64,000 nt of DNA from Bdellovibrionales bacterium (GTDB lineage Bacteria; Myxococcota; XYA12-FULL-58-9; SYDY01), in NCBI GenBank assembly GCA_005801425.1, contig SYDY01000027.1, positions 8,444-72,443 of the forward strand, written 5' to 3'. A model generated the notes under the pieces. That model did not search any database and was not told the DNA's origin. It worked only from the letters and a program-made list of their open reading frames with translations. Each line of letters begins with the position of its first letter. Positions within the stretch are counted from its first letter, which is position 1. Positions 1,805 to 32,813 of the stretch are shown one piece after another. The translations under genes were made by a program, and so were the position numbers.

Positions 1805-1822
1805 AATAATGAGAGAAAGATC

Positions 1823-2710: not shown

Positions 2711-2725
2711 AATGGATAAAATAAT

Positions 2726-3577: not shown

Positions 3578-3623
3578 TTCTCCACTTTTTGTTATAGAAT
3601 GATGGAATATAAAGGATACATTG

Positions 3624-11045: not shown

Positions 11046-11157
11046 GGTTATAATTTATTAGTTTGCGTAATATAGTTTATAGTGGCATGTTTTTGAGCGT
11101 GTTTGTTTTTCTATGGTATCGTCAGATCCCTTCCCAAACGATACTAAGGAGAACAAA

Positions 11158-12180
11158 TTGCGCCATACATCGAGGTTTCATGGTTTTTTTTGCTTGTTGT
11201 TGATGGGGTGTGCTGCTGGCAGTTCTGAAAACCAGAGATTAGGGGAAGGTCCCAATTCTCCGGCAGAAACCGGAGATCCACCTGCATGGGGACATAACGA
11301 AGGCGGTATGCCCGCCATGGGCGGTGTGGATGTGGGGCGCACGGGGGATGGAACGCATCTTAGTTATTGGGGATTCTTCTGGAAATCCACGGGGACGCCT
11401 GGTGTAGATCCCTATGCTATTTATGATTTGACAGTCGCAGGGCAAGTGATTGTCAGTTACTACGATGAAAATAACGTAACAGAAGGTGAGCAAGAATGTC
11501 ATTTTGTGGTGAATCACTACGATGAAAATGAAGGAACCAATGCAAACAGTTATTTGATCCTACAAAACGTCGCAGGTGGACCAACACCCTTTGGCTATGC
11601 GGCGGTGTACCGCAATGGACCCAAAGTATATTTGTGCGCTCCTCATGATGGCGCGGGCAATGTGCGTACCTTTGCAACAAAAGCACTTGCCGAGGCGGAT
11701 ATCACGGGAAGAGAGGATGGCATTGCTTCTGCCGATGAAACAAATCTAGGCGGTAACGGCTGCAACACCGATGTGTTTTTTACGGCCACCTCGAGCGATG
11801 GGGAGAGATGGACTTCTGGCGCGCAGGTTTATGGCGGCCTAGCCATCGCGGGTACATGGCAGGACAGTTATCCTGGCAATCTTGATCCTCCCACCACAAC
11901 TATAATTTCGAATACAGTCTGGGATGGTTTCTTCGGTGACAGAAATATCCCATGGTACGACAATACCGCCCAACAGTTGGTTTATATTTGGCCAGGTTCT
12001 CCGGATACGTACTCTGTGGTTGTTTGGACCTATGATGGCGGGCAGCTCTATTACTGTGAAGCGTCCTCTGGGCACGCAAACGCCGAAGCGGCACTCGCTG
12101 CAACATTATCATACGACGACACCGATCCTGGCACAGGGGGTTGTGGTGGCTTTGCCTGGTCTACTCTTAGTCCCCCTTAG
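11158..12180 (+). CDS. Hypothetical lipoprotein, paralog A
   Basis: ORF 11113..12180. An in-frame TTG at 11158 has AAGGAG 6 nt upstream and gives MRHTSRFHGFFCLLLMGC, a lipoprotein signal. The ATG at 11113 is an alternative start. Shares long conserved blocks with the next gene (PAWGH(N/S)EGGMPAMGG(V/A)DVGRTGDG, CHFVVNH, LQNVAGG). Confidence 0.55.
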   Translation: MRHTSRFHGFFCLLLMGCAAGSSENQRLGEGPNSPAETGDPPAWGHNEGGMPAMGGVDVGRTGDGTHLSYWGFFWKSTGTPGVDPYAIYDLTVAGQVIVSYYDENNVTEGEQECHFVVNHYDENEGTNANSYLILQNVAGGPTPFGYAAVYRNGPKVYLCAPHDGAGNVRTFATKALAEADITGREDGIASADETNLGGNGCNTDVFFTATSSDGERWTSGAQVYGGLAIAGTWQDSYPGNLDPPTTTIISNTVWDGFFGDRNIPWYDNTAQQLVYIWPGSPDTYSVVVWTYDGGQLYYCEASSGHANAEAALAATLSYDDTDPGTGGCGGFAWSTLSPP

Positions 12181-12321
12181 TTTTTCCCAAAAGATATAAG
12201 TGCATTTTTGTCCTCGGCTGTCCTGCGTCATGACTGCCGTTTGACAATGCCCGCCAAATTTTCAAAAAATATTTTTTCCTACGGTATCTTAGATCTTGCC
12301 TCACAGAACATTGGAGAAAAT

Positions 12322-13029
12322 GTGATTCACAAAACACGATTACATGGTGTGTGCTGTGTGTTGTTGATGGGATGTGCTGCAGGAAGCGCAGAAAGCCAGA
12401 ACCCAGAACAAAGCCAAAACGTGCCTTCCGAAGAGCCTGCTGCATGGGGACATAGCGAAGGGGGCATGCCTGCCATGGGCGGTGCGGATGTGGGGCGCAC
12501 CGGCGATGGGTCACATCTCAGATATTGGGGGGGATTTTGGAAAACGCCTACGGTGTCGAATGCGTATGATGTTTATGATATGACGATAGCCGGGCAGCTT
12601 ATTGTTACGCATTATGTGGACAACGTGCAACAGGGTGAATCAGAATGTCATTTCGTGGTGAATCACATCGATGAGCAAGCCGAGATTGATAACTACCGGG
12701 ATAGCTACTTGTTTCTGCAAAACGTAGCAGGTGGCGCAACCCCATTTAGCTATGTCGCCTTACACAAGAAAAATACAGGTACTGTTCCACTCCCTGTTTA
12801 TACACTGTTCATGTGCTTTCGTAACAATGCTGACGATACAAGGCATACTTTTTCGTCGCAAGCACTTGCCGAAGCGGATCTTGATTATCCCGAAGGTCCT
12901 GGGCGCCTCAATGCGGATGAAGAGCTCGAGGCTCCCGGCCAACTTGGATGCAATAAAGACATATCATTTACCCCCGCGCCGGCGACCGTCGGACGGGATT
13001 GGCTCACCGCGACAGTGTATACACCTTAA
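12322..13029 (+). CDS. Hypothetical lipoprotein, paralog B
   Basis: ORF 12208..13029. An in-frame GTG at 12322 is preceded by GGAGAAAA and gives VIHKTRLHGVCCVLLMGC (signal plus lipobox). The conserved blocks are shared with paralog A. Confidence 0.55.
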   Translation: MIHKTRLHGVCCVLLMGCAAGSAESQNPEQSQNVPSEEPAAWGHSEGGMPAMGGADVGRTGDGSHLRYWGGFWKTPTVSNAYDVYDMTIAGQLIVTHYVDNVQQGESECHFVVNHIDEQAEIDNYRDSYLFLQNVAGGATPFSYVALHKKNTGTVPLPVYTLFMCFRNNADDTRHTFSSQALAEADLDYPEGPGRLNADEELEAPGQLGCNKDISFTPAPATVGRDWLTATVYTP

Positions 13030-15212
13030 AGCGCCTTCAAAAAAGCGATCAACGCATTTTTGTCTTCGACAGACAGATTGCGGAATTTATTGCGCGAAGC
13101 TTCACCTTCTCCTGCGTGGCCCTCGATGGCTTCTTCCAACGTATCGGCAGCGCCTGAGTGAAGATAGGGTGCTGTTTGAGCGATACCCCACAAAGGCGGA
13201 GTGCGGAATTCATGGATCCCAGCAGGTCCATCTTCAATACCCAATGCATCTTCAGGCAAGATCGCATGCAAGAGCAGATCCGAATAGAGAAGCACTGGCG
13301 TGCCCGATCCATCGAGGCTCGGAATATGGCAGCTATCACAACCGAGTGTTCCAAAAATCTGTTCACCCTTTTGTTCCGTTGCTCCGCGTGGTCCAGGGAG
13401 TGGTGGTCCCAATGCGGCGACGAAAACGAGCAGATTGCGCATATCTGCGTCGGATGAGAATTCGGGATCATCCACCAGATCATCGTCGTGTTCTCGGCCG
13501 AATGTGAGTGGTGCTTGGTGCATGACAGTGATCCCAAGTTCAGCACTTGTTGCATCACGCATAAATTCGGCGAGACTCGGTACCTGTGCTTTCCAACCAA
13601 ATCGCCCAAGTCGGCCGTCCTGAAGAATCGCCGCGCGACCACTGATCCCATCAGCATTTTGATCGGTTGGATCTTCATTGTGTAAAATGGCGTTATCAGG
13701 AATTTTGTCCACAAGCCCAAGGCCCAACAAAGATGGCGTTTGGCGATGTTCAAAAACATTGATTGTAGGATCCGCAAAGACAGCACCGTTGTGGATGGCT
13801 GTGTGTTTGTGCAGAATTGTTCCACCGGCAGGTGTTTGGAATAGTCCATCAGAAAGAATTCCGTGGCGGATAACATTCACATCGTTGGGCCCTGCACCTC
13901 CTATGGCCGGTTGAAAATGACAGGCTCGGCATGAATCCGCATTAAATCGTGGTGAGCCAAGCCCCTGTGAGATCCCAATGTCGGCATCAAACAATCTTCG
14001 GCCCGCGAGGAAGATCTTTTCAATATAAGGGATCAGGGTTTCACTGGGGCCTCCCAAGCTTCCTGCCTCAGGCATGGGCGTATTGGGAGGAAGTAAACCT
14101 TGGCTTTTTGCGTAAGATCCACCCAATGATTTTAAAAACACAAGCAATGCGTTTTGATCGTCAGGACCAGCGGCTTGGAATTTTGTTCGAGAGGCCTCCG
14201 CCTCACCACCGTGCATCACAATAGCTTCTTTAATACTGGAAGCACGGCCATCGTGAAGGTATGGCCCAGTCGCTGCAATGCCCCACAAGGGCTGTGTACG
14301 AAATTCAGAACCACTTGCACGCTGCATCGTGATCCCATCGGCAAGATCGGGTCCCATGTCGTGCAGCAAAAGATCGCTAAAGAGATGAAGTGGCCCACGT
14401 GGAGAGAGAAGAGATGGCGTATGGCATGCGTTACAACCAAAATTGATAAATTGAGATTGTCCTCGTGTGCTTGTAGTGCTTAGGGGATCCAACTGGGGTG
14501 CAGCCAGTTGCGTCGCAAAGCTTACCAGATCCGAGAGGTCGTTGTCTGATAATTCAGGATCGGCAATATCATCTGTGTCTGTCTCGTTTTGCGTGGTGAT
14601 ACCCATGTGGTTCAATAACGAATGACGTACAATGCTTGCGATATCGGCGCTTTGCGCTTTGAGACCGAATCGACCAAGCTTTGATCCTTCATAGTTGGCG
14701 CGGCCACTGATCCCATCGGCATTCAAATCATCGGGATCTTCCCGCTGCATGATTTCGTGATCGGAAATTTCCTGAAGAAGCCCCATACCAAAAAGAGGGA
14801 CCGCATTTCGCTGTGCTGTGGATGCAATGGCGTGGTCGACGGCGGGGCGCGCAGAGATACCGGATCCGTAACCATACGCACGTATGATCACATGATCTGT
14901 AAGAACATAATTGCGATACAGCGAACTTGCGCCGCCGATCACGGGTCGCTCATGGCATGCAGCGCAGGATACAGCATTCAAAGTGGGGCCTACCCCCTCG
15001 GCATGTGTAAAGTGTTTGGCTGCCAATACTTTCCCTCGCTCAAAGGCCTGACGTTCTTCCTGGCTGATGGATGGAATACTCTCGCCAAGAGATGCCATGA
15101 GATCGCTTCCGAGTGGTGTATTCCTTGAATTGTCTCCATCGCGATGCTGGGCGCATCCTAGGGTCCCAGAGAGGATCAGCACGCATGATGCGAAAATAAT
15201 CCTATGGTGCAT
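13026..15212 (-). CDS. Di-haem cytochrome c peroxidase-like oxidoreductase (DUF1111 family), internally duplicated with four CXXCH motifs
   Basis: 728-aa ORF with an N-terminal signal (MHHRIIFASCVLILSGTLGC). Haem motifs CAACH, CNACH, CRACH and CDSCH. The N and C halves are repeated (DPDDLNADGISGRANYEGSKLGRFGLKAQ versus DPTDQNADGISGRAAILQDGRLGRFGWKAQ). Confidence 0.7.
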   Translation of the reverse strand: MHHRIIFASCVLILSGTLGCAQHRDGDNSRNTPLGSDLMASLGESIPSISQEERQAFERGKVLAAKHFTHAEGVGPTLNAVSCAACHERPVIGGASSLYRNYVLTDHVIIRAYGYGSGISARPAVDHAIASTAQRNAVPLFGMGLLQEISDHEIMQREDPDDLNADGISGRANYEGSKLGRFGLKAQSADIASIVRHSLLNHMGITTQNETDTDDIADPELSDNDLSDLVSFATQLAAPQLDPLSTTSTRGQSQFINFGCNACHTPSLLSPRGPLHLFSDLLLHDMGPDLADGITMQRASGSEFRTQPLWGIAATGPYLHDGRASSIKEAIVMHGGEAEASRTKFQAAGPDDQNALLVFLKSLGGSYAKSQGLLPPNTPMPEAGSLGGPSETLIPYIEKIFLAGRRLFDADIGISQGLGSPRFNADSCRACHFQPAIGGAGPNDVNVIRHGILSDGLFQTPAGGTILHKHTAIHNGAVFADPTINVFEHRQTPSLLGLGLVDKIPDNAILHNEDPTDQNADGISGRAAILQDGRLGRFGWKAQVPSLAEFMRDATSAELGITVMHQAPLTFGREHDDDLVDDPEFSSDADMRNLLVFVAALGPPLPGPRGATEQKGEQIFGTLGCDSCHIPSLDGSGTPVLLYSDLLLHAILPEDALGIEDGPAGIHEFRTPPLWGIAQTAPYLHSGAADTLEEAIEGHAGEGEASRNKFRNLSVEDKNALIAFLKAL

Positions 15213-15485: not shown

Positions 15486-15491
15486 TGCGTG

Positions 15492-16817
15492 ATGCTCGAT
15501 GCCAATGAGATCAGGCAATGGCTTGATTTCAACGTCGGATCTTTTCGGTTATCGCCTGTGTGGGTGCTCGTCTATTGGCCTATTCTTGTTGGCATCGCTG
15601 CTGCGTTTGCGTTGCGTAAAATCAAAAAAAATGAAGTGATTCGGCGTTACGGCATTCTTCTTGTGTTGCCATTGCTTATCAATATCGTGTTGCTGTTCAC
15701 GGGATGGTTTTTTCACGAGCGTATGGGACAACGCATCGATCATGCCTTGGTTCAGCATGCTGTGATTGCACCTGTGTCATGGATTTTTAATACTTTGCTT
15801 CAGATCCCTGTGATCAGAGATCAGCCTCTCCATATCGGTGTTGATTCCTTTTCTGGCTACATCGCGCCAAGTTGCGCAGGAACCCAAGGATTGTTTATTT
15901 TTACGATGCTTGCTGGCGCATGGTATTTTGTTCTTCGTCCGACGACTTTTCGGCATCGATTGATTTATTTGGTGCTTATGTGCGTTGGTCTTTGTTTGGG
16001 TTTTGTCGGCAATTGGCTGCGTCTTGTTGCGTTGCTTTATGTTGGGGCACGTGTTGATCGCGATCTGGCCCTCGCAGGATTTCATGACGCTGCAGGTGGG
16101 ATCATTGTGCTGTTGAATTTTGCATTGTTTGCGTGGGTCACGCATCGTGCATTGAAGGGTGATGATGGCAAAGCATGGTTTGCGGGCAATCCTGTGGTGC
16201 CCTATGTAATGCCTTGGATGGTGTGGATGGCATTGGGGATGCTTTCTGCGCTGGTCACGGTGCAATGGGATTGGTCGTATCCGTTGCGTGCTGTGATTGT
16301 ATTTATCATCCTAGGGGTGCTGGCTGCGCCTTTTCCTCAGACAATGATAAGGGCGGTTCGCGAACCGCCCCTACAGTCTGTTCTTGCAGGTCTATTCATC
16401 GCAGCTGTATGGATTATTTGGGGCCATTACGTGCTCGACCATGACTTTGCAGGTCGCATGCCAACTTCACTACGTTTTTATCACATGTGGATCGTCGGTC
16501 GCATTTTAGGAACCGTACTTCTGATTCCAGTGATTGAAGAACTCGCTTTTCGTGGATTTCTTGCGCGCGCTTTACAAAAGCCCATGTTTCAAGATCTCAC
16601 GCCATCGGATCTTCGTTGGCCGGCCATGCTTATTTCATCGGTGATTTTTGGTGTTTTTCACGACGCGCTTGCGGTCCCAGGCGTGGGTGCCGGATTTATA
16701 TTTGCGTTGCTTTATCGCAAGAGTGGGACGCTTGCATCCCCGATCATTGCGCATGCTGTTGCAAATCTTGGTGTCGCTTTGTACGCGCTAACCACAGGGC
16801 AGTGGCAGCATCTTTAA
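15492..16817 (+). CDS. Exosortase fused to a CPBP (CAAX protease/Abi) intramembrane metalloprotease domain (exosortase E/protease-like)
   Basis: N-terminal polytopic domain with the exosortase Cys motif (IAPSCAGTQG), GNWLRLV (Asn/Arg) and a GFHDAAGG His motif. C-terminal CPBP motifs EELAFRGF, FGVFH and HAVAN. The ORF's GTG at 15489 is an alternative start. Confidence 0.75.
   Translation: MLDANEIRQWLDFNVGSFRLSPVWVLVYWPILVGIAAAFALRKIKKNEVIRRYGILLVLPLLINIVLLFTGWFFHERMGQRIDHALVQHAVIAPVSWIFNTLLQIPVIRDQPLHIGVDSFSGYIAPSCAGTQGLFIFTMLAGAWYFVLRPTTFRHRLIYLVLMCVGLCLGFVGNWLRLVALLYVGARVDRDLALAGFHDAAGGIIVLLNFALFAWVTHRALKGDDGKAWFAGNPVVPYVMPWMVWMALGMLSALVTVQWDWSYPLRAVIVFIILGVLAAPFPQTMIRAVREPPLQSVLAGLFIAAVWIIWGHYVLDHDFAGRMPTSLRFYHMWIVGRILGTVLLIPVIEELAFRGFLARALQKPMFQDLTPSDLRWPAMLISSVIFGVFHDALAVPGVGAGFIFALLYRKSGTLASPIIAHAVANLGVALYALTTGQWQHL
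16351..16374. repeat. Single REP-like unit (GGGCGGTTCGCGAACCGCCCCTAC) inserted in-frame within the exosortase-CPBP coding sequence
   Basis: Exact match to the repeat family unit. It translates as (R)AVREPPLQ(S) at the junction between the exosortase and CPBP domains. Confidence 0.8.
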
Positions 16818-19704: not shown

Positions 19705-20649
19705 TTAGCACTGCTCAGAAACCCGGTTTTTACCTGCCAATTTACTTTTTCGCAAAGCAATATCGGCATGCGCGAGAAGGTCGGTGATAGAATGTGTTTC
19801 AGCTGGAACTGGGCACACGCCCAAGCTGATGGTCTGTTGCATGGTGTGCTCTTTGATCTTGATGGGGCGTTCAGCAACGGCCTGTCGAACACGCTCAGCA
19901 AATCGAATGGCTTCATCAGAATGGTCACTGGGCAAAAGGATCAGAAATTCGTCGCCACCAATGCGTCCCACGTGGTCCATCGATCGTGCCGCGCCTCGAA
20001 TACGATGCGATATTTCCTTAAGAAACAGATCGCCGATATCATGGCCGAAGGTATCGTTGATCTTTTTGAAATTATCACAGTCCACAATAACGGCATGCAA
20101 GGGCTGACTGTATCGCGAAGCTCGCTCGAGATCGAGAAGCAAAATATGCTCAAGTCCTCGCCGGTTGAGTATCTCGGTGAGTGGGTCTAAAAATGCCAGG
20201 TGTTCGAGTTTTTCGTTGGCCTTTTCCAGCTGTGATTGAACGCGAAATCTTTCAATCGCATAGCGGATCGAACGGAGCAGTAGATCTCCAGGAATATTCC
20301 CTTTGATGATATAATCCTGAACGCCTTTATGCAAAGCATCCAGGGCGACGGATTCTTCATTGAGACTGGTAAGAATGACGACAGGGATCCGAATAAGTCC
20401 TGATGATTTCCACTCATCGAGCAACGAAAATGCATTGCCATCTGGAAGCTGAAAGTCCAAGAGCACACAATCGAAGGTGTGCCTTTGAAGTGCATCGAGC
20501 GCAGAATAGGTATCACTTACATGCTCAACGTCCACGAGCCGGGAATTTTCCGTTGCATGGAGTGCGCGCATAACGCTCATGCGATCGACTTCATCATCCT
20601 CGATATAGAGGAGTTTGATTCGTTCAGTGGGCCACGTGCAGCTTGTCAT
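19705..20649 (-). CDS. Response regulator receiver-GGDEF diguanylate cyclase
   Basis: REC domain (LLYIEDDEVD...LTSL) followed by GGDEF (RIGGDEFLIL). The ATG overlaps the stop of the upstream receiver gene (TGATG). Confidence 0.85.
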   Translation of the reverse strand: MTSCTWPTERIKLLYIEDDEVDRMSVMRALHATENSRLVDVEHVSDTYSALDALQRHTFDCVLLDFQLPDGNAFSLLDEWKSSGLIRIPVVILTSLNEESVALDALHKGVQDYIIKGNIPGDLLLRSIRYAIERFRVQSQLEKANEKLEHLAFLDPLTEILNRRGLEHILLLDLERASRYSQPLHAVIVDCDNFKKINDTFGHDIGDLFLKEISHRIRGAARSMDHVGRIGGDEFLILLPSDHSDEAIRFAERVRQAVAERPIKIKEHTMQQTISLGVCPVPAETHSITDLLAHADIALRKSKLAGKNRVSEQC

Positions 20650-21071
20650 CAGGGGATCTCCACAACCATCCAATAGGCATCAAGCATTTTGACGAGTCTT
20701 ATAAAGTCGAGGCCAACATTCGATTTGACGATGTAGCCGGCAATACATTTGCGGTACGCTGCGAGCTTATCTTCCTCAGCAGATGATGTTGTAAGTACAA
20801 AAATAGTAGCTCGGCTGTGTTCTGGATCATTGCGGATCTCAGTAAGAAATTCCACACCATTCATGCGTGGCATATTCAGATCAAGAAGAATAATGTAGGG
20901 TTTGGGAACCGCAGGGACGCCTTGGCCACGCAGCATTTCAAGTGCCTCGATGCCATCGTGGGCAACAAGAAGTGGATTTCCTATTTTGCTTTCACGGAAA
21001 GCGCGTTTGATCGCCATGATGTCAACATCATCGTCGTCAATGAGAAGAATATGAACCGGTTGTGTTGTCAT
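20649..21071 (-). CDS. Single-domain CheY-like response regulator receiver
   Basis: 140 aa with the phospho-acceptor context ILLIDDDDVD...LLDLNMP and the conserved Thr/Lys (VLTTS...K). No output domain. Confidence 0.85.
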   Translation of the reverse strand: MTTQPVHILLIDDDDVDIMAIKRAFRESKIGNPLLVAHDGIEALEMLRGQGVPAVPKPYIILLDLNMPRMNGVEFLTEIRNDPEHSRATIFVLTTSSAEEDKLAAYRKCIAGYIVKSNVGLDFIRLVKMLDAYWMVVEIP

Positions 21072-21080
21072 GATACACCT

Positions 21081-22523
21081 TTATTTTTTACCCGTTTTAA
21101 CCCTAGGCATGTTTTTGGGCCAAGTGAAGGAAAATGTTGAACCTCGATCCTTGGATTCAAGTGTGATGGTACCACCAGCCTGCTTTACGAGTTTTTTTAC
21201 GAGGGATAAACCAATGCCACTGCCTTCGACAGAATCGCGAGGCTTAAGTGTTTGAAACATTTGAAATATTTTATCGTGAAATTTGCTAGGGATCCCAGGG
21301 CCATCATCAGCGACGATGAAGTTGAAAAATGCTGTATTTTTTGCATCTTGGGCCGAGATTGTAATGCACCCATTGGTGCGATCATGGTGTTTGATGGCAT
21401 TTCCTATGAGGTTCATGAACACGCGTTTCAGTGACAATGGGGTCGTTGTTAAAATGGGCATGGGGTGCGTGATATTAATTGTAAAACCAGCGGGGATGTT
21501 TAATAGGTCGATGACCTCTTTGATGAGGGCTTTCGTATCGACCAACTCGACATTTTCTAAATCCTTTCCAGCCCGTGCATAGTCTAAAATATCCGTGAGA
21601 AGATGATCCATTCTTTTAACGCGCCCACGCAGGAGCTTCATGTGTTCTTGGCGTTCTCCAACAAGAACGTCTTTAAGATCCTCAATGAGCCATTGCGAAA
21701 GCGAGTCAATGGCACGCAGGGGTGCACGGAGATCATGGGAAGCGGCGTAGGCGAATTGCTGAAGTTCTGAGTTGACGTGTTCTAGCTCACCGTTGATTCG
21801 TGTCAGTGTGTTTTGGAACTCTTTTTGCTCTGTGATGTCGATGCATGAACCGATGAAACCTATCATGGTGCCATCTTCTTGAAAGCGTGGCACACCTTGG
21901 TCGTAAATCCATCGGTATTCGCCATCGGCGCGGCGAAGACGATACTCCATGACAAAAGATTGTCCTTCTACAAAGTGTTCCATATAGGTGTGCATACAAC
22001 GTTGGAAATCTTCAAAGTGCACACCTTCGACCCAACCGACGCCAAGTTCCTGCTCAATCGTTCTTCCTGTGAAGTGCAGCCATCCTTCATTGAAAAAATA
22101 GCATTCGGAATCGACTCCTGCCATCCAGATCATGACAGGCGCGTAATCGGCCATGACCCGAAAGCGTGTTTCGAGTTCTCGAATTTGTTGACCTGTGTGT
22201 GCCTGTTCGGAGATGTGGCGAACAAAGGTGACGGTACCGCGTTGACTGCGGACCATGCGTCCTTCGTACCAGCTTGAGGTATTGGGCGTGGGGAGTTCGT
22301 ATTCGAATGTCTCCACACCGCCTTCTAGAAGCACACGTGCGCTTCGATCCAGGATGAGCTTACTTACGTCTAGGGGAAATACTTCACGTATATGTTTACC
22401 ACGCGTCCATTTTGGCCATTTTTCCATGGGTTTGGGGGGATTGTGAAACGAAAGACATACACCTTTAGGATCAAGTTCGAAGGCCATGTCGGGAAGAAGA
22501 TCTAAAAGTGCAGGGTCGCTCAT
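21081..22523 (-). CDS. Cytoplasmic PAS-domain sensor histidine kinase
   Basis: 480 aa with no TM segments. PAS/PAC region, then HisKA (ASHDLRAPLRAI) and HATPase_c (GSGIGLSLVKKLV). The start ATG overlaps the stop of the monooxygenase beta-subunit gene (ATGA). Confidence 0.85.
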   Translation of the reverse strand: MSDPALLDLLPDMAFELDPKGVCLSFHNPPKPMEKWPKWTRGKHIREVFPLDVSKLILDRSARVLLEGGVETFEYELPTPNTSSWYEGRMVRSQRGTVTFVRHISEQAHTGQQIRELETRFRVMADYAPVMIWMAGVDSECYFFNEGWLHFTGRTIEQELGVGWVEGVHFEDFQRCMHTYMEHFVEGQSFVMEYRLRRADGEYRWIYDQGVPRFQEDGTMIGFIGSCIDITEQKEFQNTLTRINGELEHVNSELQQFAYAASHDLRAPLRAIDSLSQWLIEDLKDVLVGERQEHMKLLRGRVKRMDHLLTDILDYARAGKDLENVELVDTKALIKEVIDLLNIPAGFTINITHPMPILTTTPLSLKRVFMNLIGNAIKHHDRTNGCITISAQDAKNTAFFNFIVADDGPGIPSKFHDKIFQMFQTLKPRDSVEGSGIGLSLVKKLVKQAGGTITLESKDRGSTFSFTWPKNMPRVKTGKK

Positions 22524-23488
22524 GCTGAGATCCCTTCAAGACCGGCTTCACGCCAGAGTTTGTTTTGTAGTTGACGTACCGACGTACGTACGGATGCTCC
22601 TTTCGTTTCAAAAAGAGAAAGAAAAGGTGCAATCGCAGCGTCACAGATCGGCACCCATTTTTCGATCCAGCTCTGCACGAACATGGCATTTTTAGGCGAT
22701 TCGGTGATGCAAAATGTGACGAATGCTTGCATCCATTCGCGATGCCAGCGTGTATCCTCCTCAAGAGAAGCTAGGACTTTTGTGAGGATCTCGTCACCTG
22801 AGCGTTCAGCGAGACATGCCAATTGGGTGAGAAATAGGGCATCGAATGCGGGTTTTAGAACGAGGTTGAGTGCGGTGATTGTTTCACCCCACGCATATGT
22901 GACGAGAAGTTTTTCGATAGCCATCCGCATGGGTTGCCACATGGGATCTTCTTGCCAAAGGGCTTTTCCTGATTGAGCGAACTTGGGATGCGTGATCTGT
23001 ATTTGACGGAGACGATAGGCAAAGCGTTGGGTACGTCGCATTTCGTCGGCCGCTTGGAGTGCACAGGTGACAACCAAGCGACCACTTGGCGCGATGTGCC
23101 CCACGTATGCTGCAATCATTTGCAAGCCGTGGGTTGGATAAAGAATGGGACCCAAGATCCCACTCAGCGTTGCCAGCCACTGGGGTGTTAGGCGTTGATC
23201 GTATCCTGTCTCGTCGACGGATCGCAGAAGGCCATCGACGTAGATCTCCTTCTCATTCTGAAGCATCGTATATTTCGTATACGTGGTTTCACGCGGATCT
23301 CGGAATTGCTCCCAATCGGTTACTTGAAGCGGACAGTTTTTCTGTTGTGTGAGCAACCATTCGCCAGACGGGGTATGAACTTCAAAGCCTCGATTGGTGT
23401 AATAAAGAAGTTTTGATGTGCTGATATCATAATCCGACGGCTTTTTTTTCAAACCTTCAAGATGCCACCACGTACGTTGTGCTGTCAT
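22520..23488 (-). CDS. Soluble diiron monooxygenase hydroxylase beta subunit (TmoE/toluene-4-monooxygenase-like)
   Basis: ORF 22520..23506. The ATG at 23488 overlaps the effector gene stop (TAATG). Length ~322 aa and N-terminus RTWWHLEGLKKKPSDYDI resemble TmoE. Confidence 0.8.
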   Translation of the reverse strand: MTAQRTWWHLEGLKKKPSDYDISTSKLLYYTNRGFEVHTPSGEWLLTQQKNCPLQVTDWEQFRDPRETTYTKYTMLQNEKEIYVDGLLRSVDETGYDQRLTPQWLATLSGILGPILYPTHGLQMIAAYVGHIAPSGRLVVTCALQAADEMRRTQRFAYRLRQIQITHPKFAQSGKALWQEDPMWQPMRMAIEKLLVTYAWGETITALNLVLKPAFDALFLTQLACLAERSGDEILTKVLASLEEDTRWHREWMQAFVTFCITESPKNAMFVQSWIEKWVPICDAAIAPFLSLFETKGASVRTSVRQLQNKLWREAGLEGISA

Positions 23489-23784
23489 TATTTCCCAAAG
23501 GCCCAAATGGCCTCCTCCTCATTGATGGTCAACTTGCCTTTAAACGATGGCATGCAAAGTTCGAGATCACCTGGCAATAGGAATGGACGTCCGAGTGCTT
23601 GTTCGACAGCCGATCGTTTGAGTGTGCATTGCATAGGAACGGACACGCGGAGATAGGAACCTCGATCAAGGACAACGACACCCTTATTCAACTTTCGGAT
23701 TGCTGTGACGATGGCATTTGCAACATCACCGACTTCGAGAACCGGACCTACGCTATTGCTCTGCTCGCTAGGTATTGGCTTCAT
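23488..23784 (-). CDS. Monooxygenase effector/coupling protein (MmoB/DmpM/TmoD family)
   Basis: ORF 23488..23838. The internal start MKPIPSEQSNSVGPVLEVGD aligns with the TmoD N-terminus. ~98 aa. Confidence 0.7.
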   Translation of the reverse strand: MKPIPSEQSNSVGPVLEVGDVANAIVTAIRKLNKGVVVLDRGSYLRVSVPMQCTLKRSAVEQALGRPFLLPGDLELCMPSFKGKLTINEEEAIWAFGK

Positions 23785-24112
23785 GGTGTGTTCCGGGTGG
23801 GTTTGGTGGAATATCAACCAGTATATTGCCATCGACAATTTTTACGTCGAAAGGACGCAAGCAAACCGACCGAGGATTGATCCCTTGGCCTGTGCGCGCA
23901 TCGTAGGAGTAGAAATGTGCACAACATGTGAGTACATCATCTTGTAGCAAGCCTTCGCTGATGGCCACTCCCAAATGGGCACAACGATCTTCGTAGGCAT
24001 AGATGGTTTCATCGATGCGGACGAGTAGGACTTTCGTACCTTCAATTTCACATCCGATCATATCACCTTGCCAGAGTTCATCGACGGGCATTATTTTTTG
24101 GAATGCCATCAA
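23768..24112 (-). CDS. Rieske [2Fe-2S] ferredoxin component (TmoC-like)
   Basis: 114 aa with CxH...(17)...CxxH ligands (RCAHLG ... TCCAHF). Confidence 0.75.
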   Translation of the reverse strand: MMAFQKIMPVDELWQGDMIGCEIEGTKVLLVRIDETIYAYEDRCAHLGVAISEGLLQDDVLTCCAHFYSYDARTGQGINPRSVCLRPFDVKIVDGNILVDIPPNPPGTHHEANT

Positions 24113-24351
24113 ATATTCTCCGCAATCACATCGATTCGATCGAGTGCAGAAAGGCCGACTTCAGCGATGGTGAGTTCAGGATCTAGAAGTTCTCCATGAC
24201 GGTAGACTTGTGCATATGTTTTGGGTTTGACGCGGACCGAGGCGGCTTCTTGTAGACTTGCTGCGAGATCTTTGATCCTGTCTGTGTCATGCACGAGAAC
24301 GACCAGCCCGATGGTATCGCCTTTTAAGAATCCAAAGAGAGGTACAAGCAT
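24109..24351 (-). CDS. Monooxygenase gamma subunit (TmoB-like)
   Basis: ORF 24109..24474. The Met at 24351 (MLVPLFGFLKGDT...) starts 5 nt after the alpha-subunit stop. ~80 aa, the size of TmoB. Confidence 0.65.
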   Translation of the reverse strand: MLVPLFGFLKGDTIGLVVLVHDTDRIKDLAASLQEAASVRVKPKTYAQVYRHGELLDPELTIAEVGLSALDRIDVIAENI

Positions 24352-24355
24352 GGCA

Positions 24356-25843
24356 TTAACCTTTCGATAATTGCATCCAAGGGTATCTGCCTCCCGCAAC
24401 ATCTTTGCCCCATATGCTCGGCGTGAGATCGAAGTATCGTAGGAGTTCAAACAGATTGCCTGGCGCTTCTCCACTGAGGATCCGCATCACAACATCTTTG
24501 TGATGCTCATAACGTTCTGGCTCGCTTTCGAAGATCCAACGGCATGGTTTCGAACAGAAGACATACTTGCGCGCGCCGCGCGTGATCACCTCCGCGGAGT
24601 TACGTTCCGGCGAACCACCACACAAGACGAGCTGACAGAGGTTGCAAAAAGTAACGGGTGTTGCACCATGGGTGTACCACTCGACGCCAGGGCCAGATTT
24701 ACGCCAGCGGTTTGTGATTTGCTCCCAGATGGGATCGAAAAGCGGCCAGGTCTTTGCATATTTTTCCTGAAGCCAGGTTCTTTCTTCTGGACCTGGCAGT
24801 GCGAAGTTGAACCAGGTTGTTGCACGGTATGTGTAAGCACTTGCGTAAACCATGTGATGGTAGGTGTCGATGGCATCCAGGAACTGTTGCCAGTACCATG
24901 GCAATGCGAGCCCCATTTCTTCAAGTGAGCGCTTGAACTGATCGAGCACCCATTCTTGCATGAATTCTTTAAATGATTGTGTCCGATGTTTGAGCGGCGT
25001 CAGGTAATCCATGCTGAAGCCGGTGATGACGGCAAAGAAAAGCCAGTTTCGCCAGAACCATTTGTCGACCAGATATTGGGCACGCTTGGGATCGTGCGCG
25101 ATTATTTTTTGGAGGACGGGATGCCCTATTTGGGCGTGACGTGCTTCATCGGTTTGGATGCTTTTGACCATTTTCTCGAACATGCGATCGCCGGCAGCAT
25201 GTGCCATGGTCGATAGACCAATGAACTGGAGATTGGTGAAGCCGGTTTCAAAAACAAAATTGGTGCCGACAGCGAACTCCATGGGATCTGATGTGATAAG
25301 GAGTTCATCGACGAGATGACGGCCTGCGATGGCAATCCAGTTGTTGGTGTGAAAAAATTTGTGGGTCCAGTCAAATTGAGGATCCCATCGGACCAATTCG
25401 TGCATGATGAGCAGTGGGATCTGGGCGTGACGAAGTTCATCCAATGCGCCGAGGAGTGCTGTTGTGCGCCATGCGCTATCGCGCCCAAAGCGGGCCGCGC
25501 GAAGATTCCCCACAACTGCTGCAAATTCAGCCAATGCAAGTGTTGCCGCGTGGAGCTTTAATCCGTTGATCCAAGAAGGGTCATGTTTCTGAAAGTCCTC
25601 CACCTTGCCGACGGCATCACGCACCGCATGGACGGAAGCTTCTTTGATGGACTGATTTTTTACGTATTCTGTGTAGGATGTACGATAGGGTTCATCCCAA
25701 TCCTTCCATGTTTCGGCTGTGAGCCATGGGGAACCGCTGATTTCTTCGGGAAAGACCTCTCGTTCCTCAACATAAGAGAAGTCCCAATCGAGCTTTCGTG
25801 CTAGATCGAGCCAGTCGTCGCGCTTTAGCATGGCGCTCCCCAT
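24356..25843 (-). CDS. Soluble diiron monooxygenase hydroxylase alpha subunit (toluene-4-monooxygenase TmoA-like, group 2 SDIMO)
   Basis: 495 aa with diiron ligand motifs E...DELRH and E...DEARH (LGALDELRHAQ; SIQTDEARHAQ). Global similarity to the TmoA/TouA layout. Confidence 0.85.
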   Translation of the reverse strand: MGSAMLKRDDWLDLARKLDWDFSYVEEREVFPEEISGSPWLTAETWKDWDEPYRTSYTEYVKNQSIKEASVHAVRDAVGKVEDFQKHDPSWINGLKLHAATLALAEFAAVVGNLRAARFGRDSAWRTTALLGALDELRHAQIPLLIMHELVRWDPQFDWTHKFFHTNNWIAIAGRHLVDELLITSDPMEFAVGTNFVFETGFTNLQFIGLSTMAHAAGDRMFEKMVKSIQTDEARHAQIGHPVLQKIIAHDPKRAQYLVDKWFWRNWLFFAVITGFSMDYLTPLKHRTQSFKEFMQEWVLDQFKRSLEEMGLALPWYWQQFLDAIDTYHHMVYASAYTYRATTWFNFALPGPEERTWLQEKYAKTWPLFDPIWEQITNRWRKSGPGVEWYTHGATPVTFCNLCQLVLCGGSPERNSAEVITRGARKYVFCSKPCRWIFESEPERYEHHKDVVMRILSGEAPGNLFELLRYFDLTPSIWGKDVAGGRYPWMQLSKG

Positions 25844-26029
25844 CGGTTATCCGATTTATCATCATGAGAAATAGGGCATGATGATCTTATAGTGTAGTGC
25901 AATGTATGTAAAGGTTTTGTAGAGGCGATCAGGACCGCCCGGTTTGAACAATATTCTGCACCCTCGAGCTGTATATACTTGCTCCTGTCCTCGCCACGCT
26001 GCATGAATGCAAAATCTTTCGGAGTTTTG

Positions 26030-28682: not shown

Positions 28683-28768
28683 CCCGCGAGAATTGGTGCG
28701 GCAGGGGAGACTCGAACTCCCACGATATTTCTACCGCCAGCCCCTCAAGCTGGTGCGTCTACCATTCC
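28683..28768 (-). tRNA. tRNA-Leu (anticodon GAG), class II with a long variable arm
   Basis: The reverse complement reads GCGGCAG-TG-GCGG-AATGGTAGA-CGC-A-CCAGC-TTGAGGG-GCTGG-(15-nt variable arm)-GGGAG-TTCGAGT-CTCCC-CTGCCGC-A-CCA. Acceptor, anticodon and T stems are complementary, and the TTCGAGT T-loop and encoded CCA are present. Confidence 0.85.
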
Positions 28769-28893
28769 GCCACTGCCGCGGCTGTGCTTACTGCTGATAC
28801 CAGAGCACACCGCCGAGTACCAACCTGCTTACAGGTTGTCAACGGGGACAAAAGAGTCGTATGCAAGGATTTATTTGATGCACGGAGGAACCC

Positions 28894-29181
28894 ATGGCCA
28901 CGATGATTACGGAAGAATGCATTAATTGCGGCGCTTGTGAGCCGGAATGCCCCAACGAGGCCATCAGCGAAGGTGAGGACATTTTTATTATCGATCCCGA
29001 TCGTTGCACCGAATGTGTCGGTCATTTCGATACCGAGCAATGCGCTGCGGTATGTCCGGTCAATTGCTGTGTCACCGATCCCAACAACGAAGAAGCCGAG
29101 GCCCCTTTGCTCGCCCGCGCCAAGGTGGTTCATCCCTTGAAGATTTTTCCCGCCGATTATCCCTCGCGGTTTCGTCAGTAA
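28894..29181 (+). CDS. 2x[4Fe-4S] ferredoxin (YfhL-like)
   Basis: 95 aa with CINCGACEPECP and CTECVGH...C...CP cluster motifs. Confidence 0.8.
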   Translation: MATMITEECINCGACEPECPNEAISEGEDIFIIDPDRCTECVGHFDTEQCAAVCPVNCCVTDPNNEEAEAPLLARAKVVHPLKIFPADYPSRFRQ

Positions 29182-29954
29182 GGGTCTGCGAAAGTCTTAA
29201 ACGCACGTGCCAGTGATACTTTTCGATCATCTTTGAGAAAACTGTTGATGGTTTTTCCGTCAATGGCTGTCGCCTGATCGGGATTGCGTAAGTTGAACGT
29301 GGCGCGTGCGATCCCTGCCGCAAAAAAGCCAATGCATGTGACGGTTCCGTCGGCATCCACTTTTTCGACGATGGCGACCTGGGCAGGAATATCGGATGCT
29401 TTGCCAGTATTAAGAAAAACAAGGTCGCCGATTTTGGGATGTTCGCGGTGCAATTGTCGATTGCGATCTACCGATCGGTACAACACTTCCATGCCTTTGA
29501 TGTGATCACGTCGATAAACTGCAGGATGGATGATCTCCATATGGGCGCTCCAAAATGCTGCGCGCACCAAGCCGATGGGATCGGATTCAAATTTATAGCC
29601 GCGCACAAGCAGCGGTTGGCCCGATAAGAACTTTTTGGCTGCAGCAACCACGTGACTGCGTTTGCCCTGATTGGTGTCTTCTGACTTGTGATGTAGGGTA
29701 TCCGATGTGGAGAAGCTGATCACTTGAAGCAAGGCAGGCGCCCTTGGGCCTGTTGTGCAGGAAACACAGAAAAATATTATAATGGAATTAAAAAGAGCGG
29801 TTCGCTTTTTACGATCTGTTTTTCTCTTGTAGGGGCGCTTCGCGAAGCGCCCGTGCGGTTTTTGATTCAAAGTTTTATCGGGCGGCTCACGAGCCGCCCC
29901 TACTGGCAAGGCAATTTTGAATGGGGACCTCAATATAACCGCCTCGATGCGCAT
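29175..29954 (-). CDS. Hypothetical exported protein, distantly NlpC/P60-like (no catalytic Cys seen)
   Basis: 259-aa ORF starting at the ATG at 29954. The first ~30 codons read through palindromic element 29829-29903 (…GAAREPP…RFAKRPYKRK), followed by a hydrophobic segment ALFNSIIIFFCVSC. The family assignment is weak. Confidence 0.4.
   Translation of the reverse strand: MRIEAVILRSPFKIALPVGAAREPPDKTLNQKPHGRFAKRPYKRKTDRKKRTALFNSIIIFFCVSCTTGPRAPALLQVISFSTSDTLHHKSEDTNQGKRSHVVAAAKKFLSGQPLLVRGYKFESDPIGLVRAAFWSAHMEIIHPAVYRRDHIKGMEVLYRSVDRNRQLHREHPKIGDLVFLNTGKASDIPAQVAIVEKVDADGTVTCIGFFAAGIARATFNLRNPDQATAIDGKTINSFLKDDRKVSLARAFKTFADPY
29829..29903. repeat. Composite palindromic REP/MITE-like element, near-identical to the 8910-8985 copy
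   Basis: GTAGGGGCGCTTCGCGAAGCGCCC-GTGCGG-TTTTGATTCAA-AGTTTTATCG-GGCGGCTCACGAGCCGCCCCTAC. Located inside the 5' region of ORF 29175..29954. Confidence 0.85.
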
Positions 29955-29996
29955 ACCCTATCCTGATCAAATCGATGGCATGCGGCAAGAAAAATA

Positions 29997-32813
29997 TTAT
30001 TGTCTGCCTGTTTTCATACGAATGATGCCCGCCGCGGGATCAACGACCGGGAGTGCAAACTTGCGCAGGTGTGTTTGAGGTATTTCTGGAAACACAGAGG
30101 CCACAAGCTGTTTGATGTGTGCGGCACTTGTGGCCAATGCACGAGGCATGCATGAAAGCTTCCTAAAATCACTGCCTAAAGCCTGTTCAGGGCTTATTTG
30201 ATGCACCGCAGCAGTCACAGTGCCTGCTGCCAGCGCACGCATCCATAAGGCTGCGCCAACAGTTCTTGCCATGTTCTCGGGGTCTTTCAAGGCTTCGATG
30301 TCCGCTTTTAGCTTGATGAGACCACGACCCTCTACAGGAAGTGCATTGACCGCATCGAGTACAGAATTGACGATCATAGAGATATCACCATCACCCAAAA
30401 CCAGTGCATCCAAGGCTTCTGGTGTTAGCAATTGAGGTGATGTTGTTTTGATAGGGATGTTTTCCCCTATGCGTTCTTCATTGAGAACATCGGATGTTGT
30501 AAAATATTGGTGCACGTTGGTTAAAGCAACTTGAATGACGGCGATTCTTTCGATCAAGTTCCTGGCTGATACAAGTTGGGCTTGATGAACGCCATCCGGC
30601 AAAGGCGCCGTCGTGTTGTAAATAGCGCGTTGTAGGGATTTTACCGGACTTTGGGAGACGAGCAAATCGTCGAACATGGACGCATGGGTGTCGACCAATA
30701 AAGTGACGCATCCTTTTAATTGATCAGCCATCTGTAAAAATTTCTTGGTGATGGCGTACGCTGCTTTTCCATCGGCATTTGACGCTTCAAGGAATGCAGT
30801 CGGATCGTCGGTGCGAAGCGCTGCAAGCAAGCGTTCGCGATAATTATGTTTGATGGCCCATGGGATTTCGCGAATGTATTTTTCCATGGCAGGTGCCATG
30901 GATGGGGGAAAGCATGGATTGCGGATGATGGCGTGCGCAAGTACTTGAAGTGTATCCTCACCAGGAAAAAATCCATAAGGAAGAACTGCTTCGCATGCAT
31001 AACGAAGTGCTTTTTGTTGTTCTGAAGTCAATGGATTTTTAAGTGACTTCATGATCAATGCGGCTTGATTGATCACGTTTTCCAGAAGGGTCTCTCGTTC
31101 GAGATCCCAAAAAGCCCGTTGGGCGTTAATGATCACATGCGCGTCGTAGACGAGTACTTCAGGAAGTGCATCAATCTCACAATTTTTTCGTTCTACGATC
31201 CAGTCAACGATGCCCGCTTCGATAAGTTTTTTAGAACCATGGGCTTCGTGAAGCTCCGAAGCGCTTGTGCCATAGAGATTCGGATTGGATGTGATGGGTT
31301 TGAGCCATTCAAATGTACGTCTAGGATCGAGGCGCTTTATGGCCTTGCGCTCACGCTTAATCGTTATTTGTTGGACATCAAGCCGCTTTGTTTGTGATGT
31401 TACTGCTTCTCCTGCGAAGATAAGCGCTTCGTTCTGATGGCGCGTACGAATGCGATCGACTTCCACACGAATGCTCATGTTTTTGAGATGAACAGCAAGA
31501 AGACGCATTCTTTTGTCAAGGATACGCATGCCCACACAAATAGCGGCTTGAGGTGATAACTGTTTCCACTCTTCTCGATGGGTTCGTTTTTTCCATTCAA
31601 AATGCACCACATCTTCGGAGGATGCCACGCGATTGAGGAGTGTCATGGCAGCTTCAAGCATGGCAATCACGCGCTCAGGTTGAACGATATCATCTTCGTC
31701 ATGAAGCGATGCAATGATCAGTGTTTGTTCTACTTCAGCTTTCCATTTTTTTGCGCCCTCGACATCTCGGCTACTTTCGATGGGGCACAGGCGGAGCAAT
31801 TGTTCTTTGCAACTGGTTAACATGTCCAGTGTTCGCGTGAAATCCAATGACCCCCGATTCAGCATATCGGTTGCGAAATGTTGCCAATACGTATCCGCCG
31901 CCTGTTGTCCTTCGGGGGTTAGCCATGCGGGTGTGACTTCAAAATTAGGGTGGGCTGACACTTGATGTTCAACCCAATGGGCATTGTGTTCGGCCCAGGG
32001 TGGAAGTTGTTCGTACAGGGCATTTTCGAGCAAAACGATGGATTGTGGCCCTTCAGGAGAAGCGAGAAGCTGGCGTCGTATTTTTTCTTGAAGTTGAATC
32101 AAATTTTCGCGGCGTGGCGTTGCATCTTCAGAAAGGTCGTGCGTCAGACCTGACAGCATGCGTGTGACATCGATATATGTTTTGATCAATGCAGGGATGT
32201 GAGGTTCTTTATTTTCTTGAATGATTTTGGCTTGCAGCGGTTCTTGTTTGAAACACGTGAGATATGTATCCCAGCGCGCTTGCCAAGCTTGAGCAAGTAT
32301 GTCGATTTCTGCTTGGGGAAGATTGTGGGCAAGTGCGTCTTGAAAATTTTCAAACGCCTCGAGCATGACACATGCAGAATGTACGGAAGGGTTCTTCAAT
32401 AATTCTGAAGGTCTTTCGGAAGCATGGGATGGAAAGAAACGGCCCGTTCCCACGAGGTAGGCCATATGCAATTCTTGGACTGAAGGATTAAAATTAGGAA
32501 CGACCTGTTGTGCTTTGTGAATGTAGCGTCGACTATGCGCTTGCGTGAGTGGATCTTGCAATTCAAGCGTAAGATCCGAAAATCGTGTTGCGCTTGCTTT
32601 GGCCAGGGAAGGTGCTTGATAGGTAATGTCAGGGGTTAATGTACTTACCGATTGGCTTCGTTTAGGTTTTTTATGGGGATGTTCGTCGTTGGGGTTGAAG
32701 GAATCGTCTTTTGTTTTAAAGTTTCCAACAATCTTCATCCGCATTGCCCTTCTTCGATCCGCATGACGCATCAATTTGAAGTCTTGCACGTGGGCTATCT
32801 TTATCTTCGACAA
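29997..32813 (-). CDS. Large hypothetical protein (938 aa), no recognisable domain
   Basis: Long uninterrupted ORF, predicted mostly alpha-helical. Local GC (~46-48%) is lower than the flanks. No signal peptide was seen. Confidence 0.5.
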   Translation of the reverse strand: MSKIKIAHVQDFKLMRHADRRRAMRMKIVGNFKTKDDSFNPNDEHPHKKPKRSQSVSTLTPDITYQAPSLAKASATRFSDLTLELQDPLTQAHSRRYIHKAQQVVPNFNPSVQELHMAYLVGTGRFFPSHASERPSELLKNPSVHSACVMLEAFENFQDALAHNLPQAEIDILAQAWQARWDTYLTCFKQEPLQAKIIQENKEPHIPALIKTYIDVTRMLSGLTHDLSEDATPRRENLIQLQEKIRRQLLASPEGPQSIVLLENALYEQLPPWAEHNAHWVEHQVSAHPNFEVTPAWLTPEGQQAADTYWQHFATDMLNRGSLDFTRTLDMLTSCKEQLLRLCPIESSRDVEGAKKWKAEVEQTLIIASLHDEDDIVQPERVIAMLEAAMTLLNRVASSEDVVHFEWKKRTHREEWKQLSPQAAICVGMRILDKRMRLLAVHLKNMSIRVEVDRIRTRHQNEALIFAGEAVTSQTKRLDVQQITIKRERKAIKRLDPRRTFEWLKPITSNPNLYGTSASELHEAHGSKKLIEAGIVDWIVERKNCEIDALPEVLVYDAHVIINAQRAFWDLERETLLENVINQAALIMKSLKNPLTSEQQKALRYACEAVLPYGFFPGEDTLQVLAHAIIRNPCFPPSMAPAMEKYIREIPWAIKHNYRERLLAALRTDDPTAFLEASNADGKAAYAITKKFLQMADQLKGCVTLLVDTHASMFDDLLVSQSPVKSLQRAIYNTTAPLPDGVHQAQLVSARNLIERIAVIQVALTNVHQYFTTSDVLNEERIGENIPIKTTSPQLLTPEALDALVLGDGDISMIVNSVLDAVNALPVEGRGLIKLKADIEALKDPENMARTVGAALWMRALAAGTVTAAVHQISPEQALGSDFRKLSCMPRALATSAAHIKQLVASVFPEIPQTHLRKFALPVVDPAAGIIRMKTGRQ

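Follow-up and report, generated by a model that had tools for sequence, protein, structure and literature searches.

We analyzed a 64,000-nt stretch of DNA (the window; positions 8,444 to 72,443 of contig SYDY01000027.1, assembly GCA_005801425.1) from a Bdellovibrionales bacterium of the Myxococcota. The window carries a block of eight minus-strand genes encoding the five proteins of a soluble diiron monooxygenase (SDIMO) of the toluene monooxygenase (TMO) type, a soluble PAS histidine kinase (HK), a single receiver (REC), and a REC-GGDEF diguanylate cyclase (Table 1). The original prediction, made from the sequence alone, proposed that the monooxygenase operon has no reductase gene and is coupled through the kinase to cyclic di-GMP (c-di-GMP) output. 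The monooxygenase belongs to a clade of TMO/alkene-monooxygenase-type SDIMOs known from metagenome-assembled genomes (MAGs) only. Operons of this clade have no reductase gene and are always accompanied by a soluble PAS kinase of one family. In this clade, a sensor kinase has taken the place of the operon reductase, and the c-di-GMP cyclase is a local addition.

Operon structure and active sites

The open reading frame (ORF) listing and Pfam searches confirm the eight packed genes at the predicted coordinates (19705-25831). The longest ORF of the alpha subunit starts at 25843, and gene callers choose the ATG at 25831. Spacing among the eight genes ranges from +9 to -19 nt. The alpha-gamma junction is +4 nt, gamma and the Rieske gene share TGATG (-1), and the Rieske and effector genes overlap (-17 nt). 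The effector-beta junction is -19 with a TTG start or TAATG (-1) with an ATG start. The kinase start overlaps the beta stop in ATGA (-4), the receiver gene follows at +9 nt, and the cyclase gene follows the receiver through TGATG (-1). Translational coupling joins all eight genes into one block, and this packing suggests that they are co-transcribed. The neighbors on both sides lie on the opposite strand (pgk/tpiA upstream and an aldehyde dehydrogenase gene downstream), so the block stands as a unit of its own, preceded by an intergenic region of 198 nt. A sigma-70-like TTTACA-N17-TAAGAT is present upstream of alpha (25912-25884), with a match at chance level, and no sigma-54 -24/-12 site was found in this intergenic region. 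Consensus scans for promoters and terminators across the junctions also gave counts at chance level.

Table 1. Genes and intergenic region of the monooxygenase-kinase block
Feature	Coordinates	Strand	Evidence and remarks
Hydroxylase alpha, TmoA/TouA-like, 491 aa	24356..25831	-	Pfam Phenol_Hydrox 4e-63 and YHS
Hydroxylase gamma, TmoB-like, 80 aa	24109..24351	-	PF06234 1.8e-9, 38 bits vs cutoff 25
Rieske [2Fe-2S] ferredoxin, TmoC-like, 113 aa	23768..24109	-	PF00355 8e-16; CxH...CxxH ligands in translation
Cofactor-less effector/coupling protein, TmoD-like, 98 aa	23488..23784	-	PF02406 MmoB_DmpM 7.5e-18
Hydroxylase beta, TmoE-like, 328 aa	22520..23506	-	PF02332 Phenol_Hydrox 6e-61; alternative ATG 23488
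Soluble sensor histidine kinase, 480 aa	21081..22523	-	Pfam PAS, HisKA, HATPase_c
Single-domain CheY-like receiver, 140 aa	20649..21071	-	Response_reg 8e-16
Receiver-GGDEF diguanylate cyclase, PleD/WspR-like, 314 aa	19705..20649	-	GGDEF 4e-43 and Response_reg
Divergent intergenic region between pgk (+) and alpha (-)	25832..26029	-	198 nt; probable operon promoter site

The predicted subunit assignments, tmoABCDE order, and intact diiron motifs are borne out by Pfam, alignment to PDB structures, and the translations. The alpha subunit matches the solved TouA/TmoA structures with an E value of ~1e-119, and alpha and beta both match the SDIMO hydroxylase profile (Table 1). Against the NCBIfam aromatic/alkene monooxygenase beta model, the beta subunit scores 57.5 bits, far under the cut-off of 700. 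All six diiron ligands are kept in alpha (E104, E134, H137, E197, E231, and H234, ToMO numbering), as are T201 and N202, and the translations of the five subunit genes contain no frameshifts or internal stops. The sequence features of a four-component TMO are found, namely a diiron alpha in the Phenol_Hydrox fold, beta, a TmoB gamma, a Rieske protein, and an MmoB/DmpM effector in the order alpha-gamma-ferredoxin-effector-beta. The one feature missing is an operon-encoded Fer2-FAD-NAD reductase (TmoF).

The kinase is predicted to have the layout PAS(4-103)-helix-PAS(131-229)-DHp-CA with no membrane segment (AlphaFold2 model, pLDDT 89.5), and its translation contains the H-box His and the N, G1, and G2 motifs. 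The single receiver keeps the acidic pocket, the phospho-acceptor Asp, the Thr, and the Lys; the Asp pocket is readable in the receiver of the cyclase as well. By translation and Pfam, the kinase and receiver have the residues of a two-component pair. The cyclase has an intact GGDEF motif and an RxxD I-site (RSMD), seen as RSMDHVGRIGGDEF in the translation. It scores 160.9 bits against the NCBIfam GGDEF domain model (cut-off 37.4) and 188 bits against the PleD model, under the cut-off of 474. The PleD and WspR cyclases likewise combine REC and GGDEF with an intact motif and I-site, whereas PleD has two receivers and the window cyclase has one and is co-encoded with a monooxygenase. Judged from the translations, every active-site motif of the enzyme and of the signaling proteins is intact.

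We searched for the missing reductase with a hidden Markov model (HMM) built from 17 TmoF-type (Fer2-FAD-NAD) reductases of classical loci. No TmoF-like ORF matched at E<0.01 anywhere in the window, in agreement with the original prediction, and no ferredoxin reductase was found among the non-shadow window ORFs of at least 250 aa by Pfam scan or in the precomputed Pfam record. A reductase gene lying just outside the block is thus ruled out for the 64-kb window, and for 10 kb on either side in relatives. About 3 kb upstream of the operon, a 95-aa 4Fe-4S ferredoxin is encoded at 28894-29181 (+); it is not a reductase.

Conservation of the enzyme-kinase unit

An alpha-based scan with one genome per species yielded 80 loci. 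The 53 loci with alpha at least 59% identical were taken as the clade, and 47 of them have readable flanks and constitute the informative set. The other 27 loci are classical or actinobacterial TMOs with alpha 41-51% identical. Alpha relatives at 69-81% identity number in the hundreds and all derive from metagenomes or MAGs; between phyla, alpha identity is 60-81%. The clade includes Myxococcota/Polyangia, Acidobacteriota, Planctomycetota, Nevskiaceae, Rhodocyclaceae, Fibrobacterota, and Elusimicrobiota, and further Leptospiraceae (Turneriella) and Candidatus Obscuribacterales (L041, flanks uninformative). It is absent from the plasmids of PLSDB, where the best match has 43% identity. ENA and Logan assemblies also contain the monooxygenase-kinase locus of the window.

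A homologue of the window kinase adjoins the SDIMO at all 47 informative clade loci. It lies directly after beta at 39 of the 47, directly before alpha at one, and divergently upstream at seven. These seven loci are all from Acidobacteriota and pair the kinase with a REC-GerE (NarL-type) regulator. Independent look-ups also found the kinase after beta at L083, L084, L165, and the P0005 and P0279 contigs. The order is rearranged at L168, where the kinase overlaps the alpha start and the receivers follow beta, and at L167, where receivers precede alpha. The transmitter of the clade kinases varies (HisKA, HisKA_2/HWE, or HisKA_3), and the same PAS domain is always kept. The PAS distances correlate with the alpha distances (Mantel r 0.57-0.66, p 0.0005).

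A homologous REC follows the kinase at L004, L005, L030/L084, and L165. The outputs after the kinase differ by lineage and include a single REC, REC-HisKA-HATPase(-REC), REC-Ser/Thr kinase, and REC-GGDEF-EAL proteins; in Polyangia, a 650-aa REC-PAS-HK-REC hybrid occupies this place, and some clade loci have NarL- or NtrC-type regulators nearby. When the neighboring ORFs of the clade loci were clustered, the only recurring families were SDIMO, HK, and REC proteins, with no recurring catabolic neighbors. What the clade conserves is the pairing of monooxygenase and kinase, which spans at least six phyla. The output modules differ, and c-di-GMP output is specific to certain lineages. The physical coupling was rightly predicted to be unusual compared with described systems, and it is stronger than a single locus could reveal because it holds throughout the informative set.

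The TmoF HMM found no TmoF-like gene within 10 kb at any of the 53 clade loci. At 14 non-clade loci such a gene was found, directly after beta in 10 cases and elsewhere in or near the cluster in 4. The former position is that of the kinase in the window, as the original prediction had proposed for the signaling genes, and classical Pseudomonas and Burkholderia operons (alpha ~43% identical) have tmoF in this slot. TmoABCDEF of Pseudomonas mendocina KR1 and TouABCDEF of P. stutzeri OX1 contain the same five proteins in the same order as the window, and TmoA and TouA share with the window alpha identical metal ligands and T201/N202/Q204/F205 at only ~43% identity. The window differs from both in that tmoF is missing, a PAS kinase takes its slot, the pocket is changed, and there is no catabolic island. 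The absence of a linked reductase is not unique to the clade. No TmoF-like reductase was found within 10 kb, in the flanks that could be read, at the actinobacterial TMO loci L049, L054, L060, L068, L069, L071, L073, L074, and L077. These actinobacterial loci have alpha 42-51% identical, and several are ordered alpha, effector, beta, Rieske.

All 57 clade alphas retain the iron ligands and T201, N202, Q204, and F205. Other pocket positions have changed in a clade-specific manner. Residue 141 (ToMO numbering) is Pro in all 57 clade alphas and Gln in 25 of 25 classical enzymes, L192T occurs in 54 of 57, F176 is mostly Val, Ala, or Ile (F176V in the clade signature of the window alpha), and M180L and I100L are also typical of the clade. 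The invariant ligands with this altered pocket point to a competent enzyme whose substrate preference is unlike that of the classical toluene monooxygenases; a different substrate would be expected because the pocket differs. A decaying operon, in which the reductase was lost and the enzyme no longer functions, would explain the missing tmoF, and the P0279 relative also has no Rieske gene. We find this hardly credible given the five intact subunits, the ligand invariance, the high sequence conservation, and the uninterrupted reading frames.

An SDIMO survey (Environ Microbiol 2025; PMC11825192) describes TMO subgroups A and B, whose uncharacterized alphas come from MAGs of Acidobacteria, Planctomycetota, Pseudomonadota, and others. 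The window clade probably corresponds to these subgroups, as judged from the taxa rather than from tree placement. That study gives TMO operons as six genes including the reductase, and the word "kinase" is absent from it. A 2026 MAG survey that scored full tmoABCDEF operons found them in Burkholderiales and Alphaproteobacteria only (PMC13603553). We found no paper that connects c-di-GMP, or a kinase gene within the operon, with a TMO-type SDIMO operon, and the enzyme-kinase arrangement is apparently undescribed. SDIMOs are viewed as enzymes of catabolism or co-metabolism that are encoded by a fixed operon of six genes, and this clade will be missed or misread wherever a survey counts complete tmoABCDEF operons. 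The branch is widespread and uncultured, occurring in MAGs of Myxococcota, Acidobacteriota, Planctomycetota, and others from soil, groundwater, and wetland. It is uncharacterized, and its pocket is unlike that of classical toluene monooxygenases.

Possible roles of the linked kinase

The conserved linkage suggests that hydrocarbon oxidation is wired into cell signaling. We give about an even chance to the explanation that the locus encodes a working five-gene SDIMO which is reduced in trans and expressed together with a two-component system of its own. One transcript would start in the pgk-tmoA intergenic region. The hydroxylase would oxidize a small hydrophobic substrate, and the Rieske ferredoxin is assumed to receive electrons from a reductase encoded elsewhere. 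Yen and Karl reportedly found in 1992 that toluene 4-monooxygenase (T4MO) was still active in E. coli without tmoF. The kinase would be made in step with the enzyme, largely by translational coupling, and would relay a cytoplasmic cue tied to the operation of the enzyme. The substrate or product could provide this cue. Because the PAS domain is generic, a general cue (redox, O2, or thiol-reactive, arising from oxygenase turnover or uncoupling) is likelier than a specific hydrocarbon. Phosphotransfer from the kinase to the single receiver and the REC-GGDEF protein would then raise c-di-GMP, coupling hydrocarbon oxidation to surface-lifestyle decisions and/or providing feedback on operon expression.

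The kinase family extends beyond monooxygenase loci. The DHp-proximal PAS is 50-62% identical among 36 linked orthologues, and a metagenome scan with the PAS alignment retrieved 80 loci at similar identity, 16 of them with SDIMO genes alongside. The unlinked kinases are mostly long multi-PAS proteins followed by a NarL-type regulator, and the full-length proteins most similar to the window kinase are multi-PAS kinases of cyanobacteria (45-53% identity). Cys141, Cys176, and Cys227 of the PAS region are common to linked, unlinked, and cyanobacterial kinases; seven divergent Acidobacteriota kinases retain only Cys176 of the three. Sequence and fold searches of the PDB with the kinase returned generic PAS kinases only. 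At L166 8001-12918, in a Trichormus/Nostoc-type genome, a kinase is followed by REC, REC-HK, and REC-HK, with no monooxygenase.

Several of these observations weigh against the explanation by a working enzyme with a dedicated two-component system. Fifteen PAS-retrieved loci with long flanks carry no SDIMO, the HK-REC-(REC-HK) cassette exists without one (L166), and the window kinase is equally similar to cyanobacterial multi-PAS kinases and to SDIMO-linked ones. Comparison of linked, unlinked, and cyanobacterial kinases found no SDIMO-specific PAS residues. Only two positions are clade-typical, and both are missing from the window kinase. The bootstrap supports a separate clade of SDIMO-linked kinases only weakly (86 of 200 under a lenient criterion). 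The c-di-GMP output that the original prediction put at the center is not the conserved part, with REC-GGDEF at 3 of 56 clade loci (the window, L064, and L083). A PAS domain exclusive to SDIMO loci can be rejected from the SDIMO-free loci and the equally similar cyanobacterial kinases. The PAS of the kinase is not specialized relative to homologues without a nearby monooxygenase.

Other measures do separate the linked kinases. In distance trees (BLOSUM neighbor joining), the linked PAS domains group together, and the nearest neighbor is linked for 61 of 61 linked PAS domains and unlinked for 26 of 26 unlinked ones. Mean PAS identity is 0.67 inside the linked set and 0.57 between the linked and unlinked sets. 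In a prediction test, two kinases falling in the linked cluster were both encoded directly after an SDIMO beta. The cyanobacterial kinase of L166, which falls outside it, was not, despite its matching HK-REC-(REC-HK) cassette. The tree and the nearest-neighbor test favor clustering and the bootstrap is weak, so robust monophyly of the linked kinases is not claimed. These data bear on hitch-hiking, in which a mobile generic HK-REC cassette landed beside an SDIMO in an ancestor and was co-inherited or co-transferred with no functional tie. The occurrence of the same cassette without an SDIMO in cyanobacteria and soil MAGs, together with the weakly supported monophyly, would fit such an origin. 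We nevertheless regard it as improbable, since it is hard to reconcile with retention at 47 of 47 loci through rearrangements (after beta, before alpha, divergent, and between beta and alpha) and swapped transmitter domains across at least six phyla. The clean nearest-neighbor separation and the coupled start/stop codons also argue against it.

The kinase could instead be an ordinary regulator like TodS/TmoS, which would bind the substrate through its PAS domain and switch on a catabolic operon via a DNA-binding response regulator. Here, that regulator would be unlinked or a c-di-GMP-responsive factor would be used, and the operon position would reflect autoregulation only. TodS/TodT and TmoS/TmoT likewise comprise a cytoplasmic PAS kinase genetically linked to a toluene oxygenase operon, and TodT is a NarL-type partner, as in the acidobacterial relatives of the window locus. 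TodS binds toluene in its PAS domain (PMC8534201), which lends this regulator model some weight, as do the Acidobacteriota kinases divergent from the operon with their REC-GerE partner, the REC-sigma54 activator at the P0279 locus, and the FHA-sigma54 activators at 8 Polyangia loci. TodS/TmoS-type kinases also lie directly upstream of classical tmo operons at L058, L062, and L065. The original prediction held that toluene monooxygenase regulators are encoded apart from the structural genes. This is only partly true in view of these three loci and of the MmoS regulator of soluble methane monooxygenase (sMMO).

However, TodS and TmoS are double kinases (PAS-HK-REC-PAS-HK, ~970-978 aa) encoded divergently, whereas the window kinase is a single kinase of 480 aa encoded within the structural operon, and its partners do not bind DNA. 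It has no sequence or architectural match to TodS, and a TodS-like toluene sensor was rejected on these grounds. The window cluster also has neither a DNA-binding regulator nor a sigma-54 promoter, no downstream catabolic genes are found near any clade locus, and the PAS is common to kinases without a nearby monooxygenase. For these reasons, we consider the TodS-like model rather unlikely. The sMMO regulator MmoS is another PAS-containing sensor kinase (PMC8534201), and MmoS/MmoQ of Methylococcus capsulatus Bath resembles the window in tying a PAS sensor kinase to an SDIMO cluster. MmoS differs in being a large hybrid kinase with an FAD-binding PAS-A, and the window sensor region has no PDB sequence match to it. 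An MmoS-like FAD sensor was likewise rejected, as no MmoS-named match occurs among the 14 PDB matches at E<=1. The gene for MmoS lies in the mmo cluster. The known SDIMO-linked sensors (TodS/TmoS and MmoS) have another architecture, and their genes are not coupled by translation to the structural genes.

A further alternative, also raised by the original prediction, is that the monooxygenase serves as an input device for signaling and not for catabolism. A volatile or aromatic cue, or O2, would lead to a product or redox change that is read by the co-translated kinase. Such a device would account for the invariable linkage across phyla, often with overlapping stop/start codons, and for clade loci without a reductase or catabolic neighbors, in the window within a housekeeping context. 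The unusual conservation of alpha between phyla (60-81%), the fixed clade-specific pocket, and the signaling nature of the outputs also fit. The generic PAS speaks against a dedicated product sensor, however, and many catabolic or co-metabolic oxygenases also have no pathway genes nearby, so we hold the input device to be unlikely. Extending it to the clade, the whole group of TMO-like hydroxylases might act as an enzyme-coupled hydrocarbon, aromatic, or O2 sensor, in which the kinase reads the signal or the single receivers act on the hydroxylase; we regard this as similarly doubtful. If true, it would represent an unrecognized route of hydrocarbon perception in soil bacteria of at least six phyla. 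The working enzyme with a co-expressed two-component system remains our preferred explanation, and the conserved coupling leads to the hypothesis that monooxygenase activity is functionally linked to two-component or c-di-GMP signaling.

Other features of the related loci and the window

Some related loci carry fused or incomplete component sets. A natural 198-aa Rieske-MmoB (ferredoxin-effector) fusion is encoded at L084 8640-9236 and also at L030. In Acidobacteriota, a 655-aa frame combines Rieske, MmoB, and beta (L018 11567-13531; also L019, L021, L022, L023, L026, and L028). The T4MO ferredoxin and effector compete for a single hydroxylase site, which makes their fusion mechanistically intriguing. 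Such natural ferredoxin-effector(-beta) fusions may help mechanistic study of the shared docking site. The JGI 3300056388 contig with P0279 encodes alpha, TmoB, MmoB, beta, and the PAS kinase, with no called Rieske gene and no reductase. Two receivers lie upstream on this contig, and a REC-sigma54 activator is divergent. At L167 701-2550 (-), a truncated globin (Bac_globin) and an RDD-domain Ser/Thr kinase are encoded divergently upstream of the REC-REC-SDIMO operon. Several Polyangia loci have REC-Ser/Thr kinases or FHA-sigma54 activators nearby.

Apart from the operon, the window is largely housekeeping (ValRS, AdoHcy hydrolase, MurB, MreBC, PBP2, RodA, PolA, holA, KdpAB, pgk, tpiA, and secG) with a GC content of ~50%. 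Among named relatives, those nearest to its PolA (53-59% identity) are MAGs assigned to Myxococcota or "Deltaproteobacteria", and the host is probably an uncultured Myxococcota-like bacterium. A tRNA-Leu(GAG) at 28694-28779 adjoins secG and the 4Fe-4S ferredoxin gene. Two groups of paralogues have no Pfam match. Four tandem genes at 881-4484 (+) encode proteins of 307, 295, 283, and 287 aa with 37-42% pairwise identity and common motifs such as RGxGYG and PGQFxWRK, and two adjoining genes at 11113-13029 (+) encode proteins of 355 and 273 aa that are 50% identical over ~240 aa. ORFs of 938, 259, and 813 aa at 29175-32813 (-) and 45634-48075 (+) also have no Pfam domain (E<1e-3/1e-4). A 728-aa di-heme DHOR/RoxA-like cytochrome c protein is encoded at 13026-15212 (-), and its neighbor at 15489-16817 (+) is a 442-aa protein combining exosortase (EpsH) and CAAX-protease (Rce1-like) domains.

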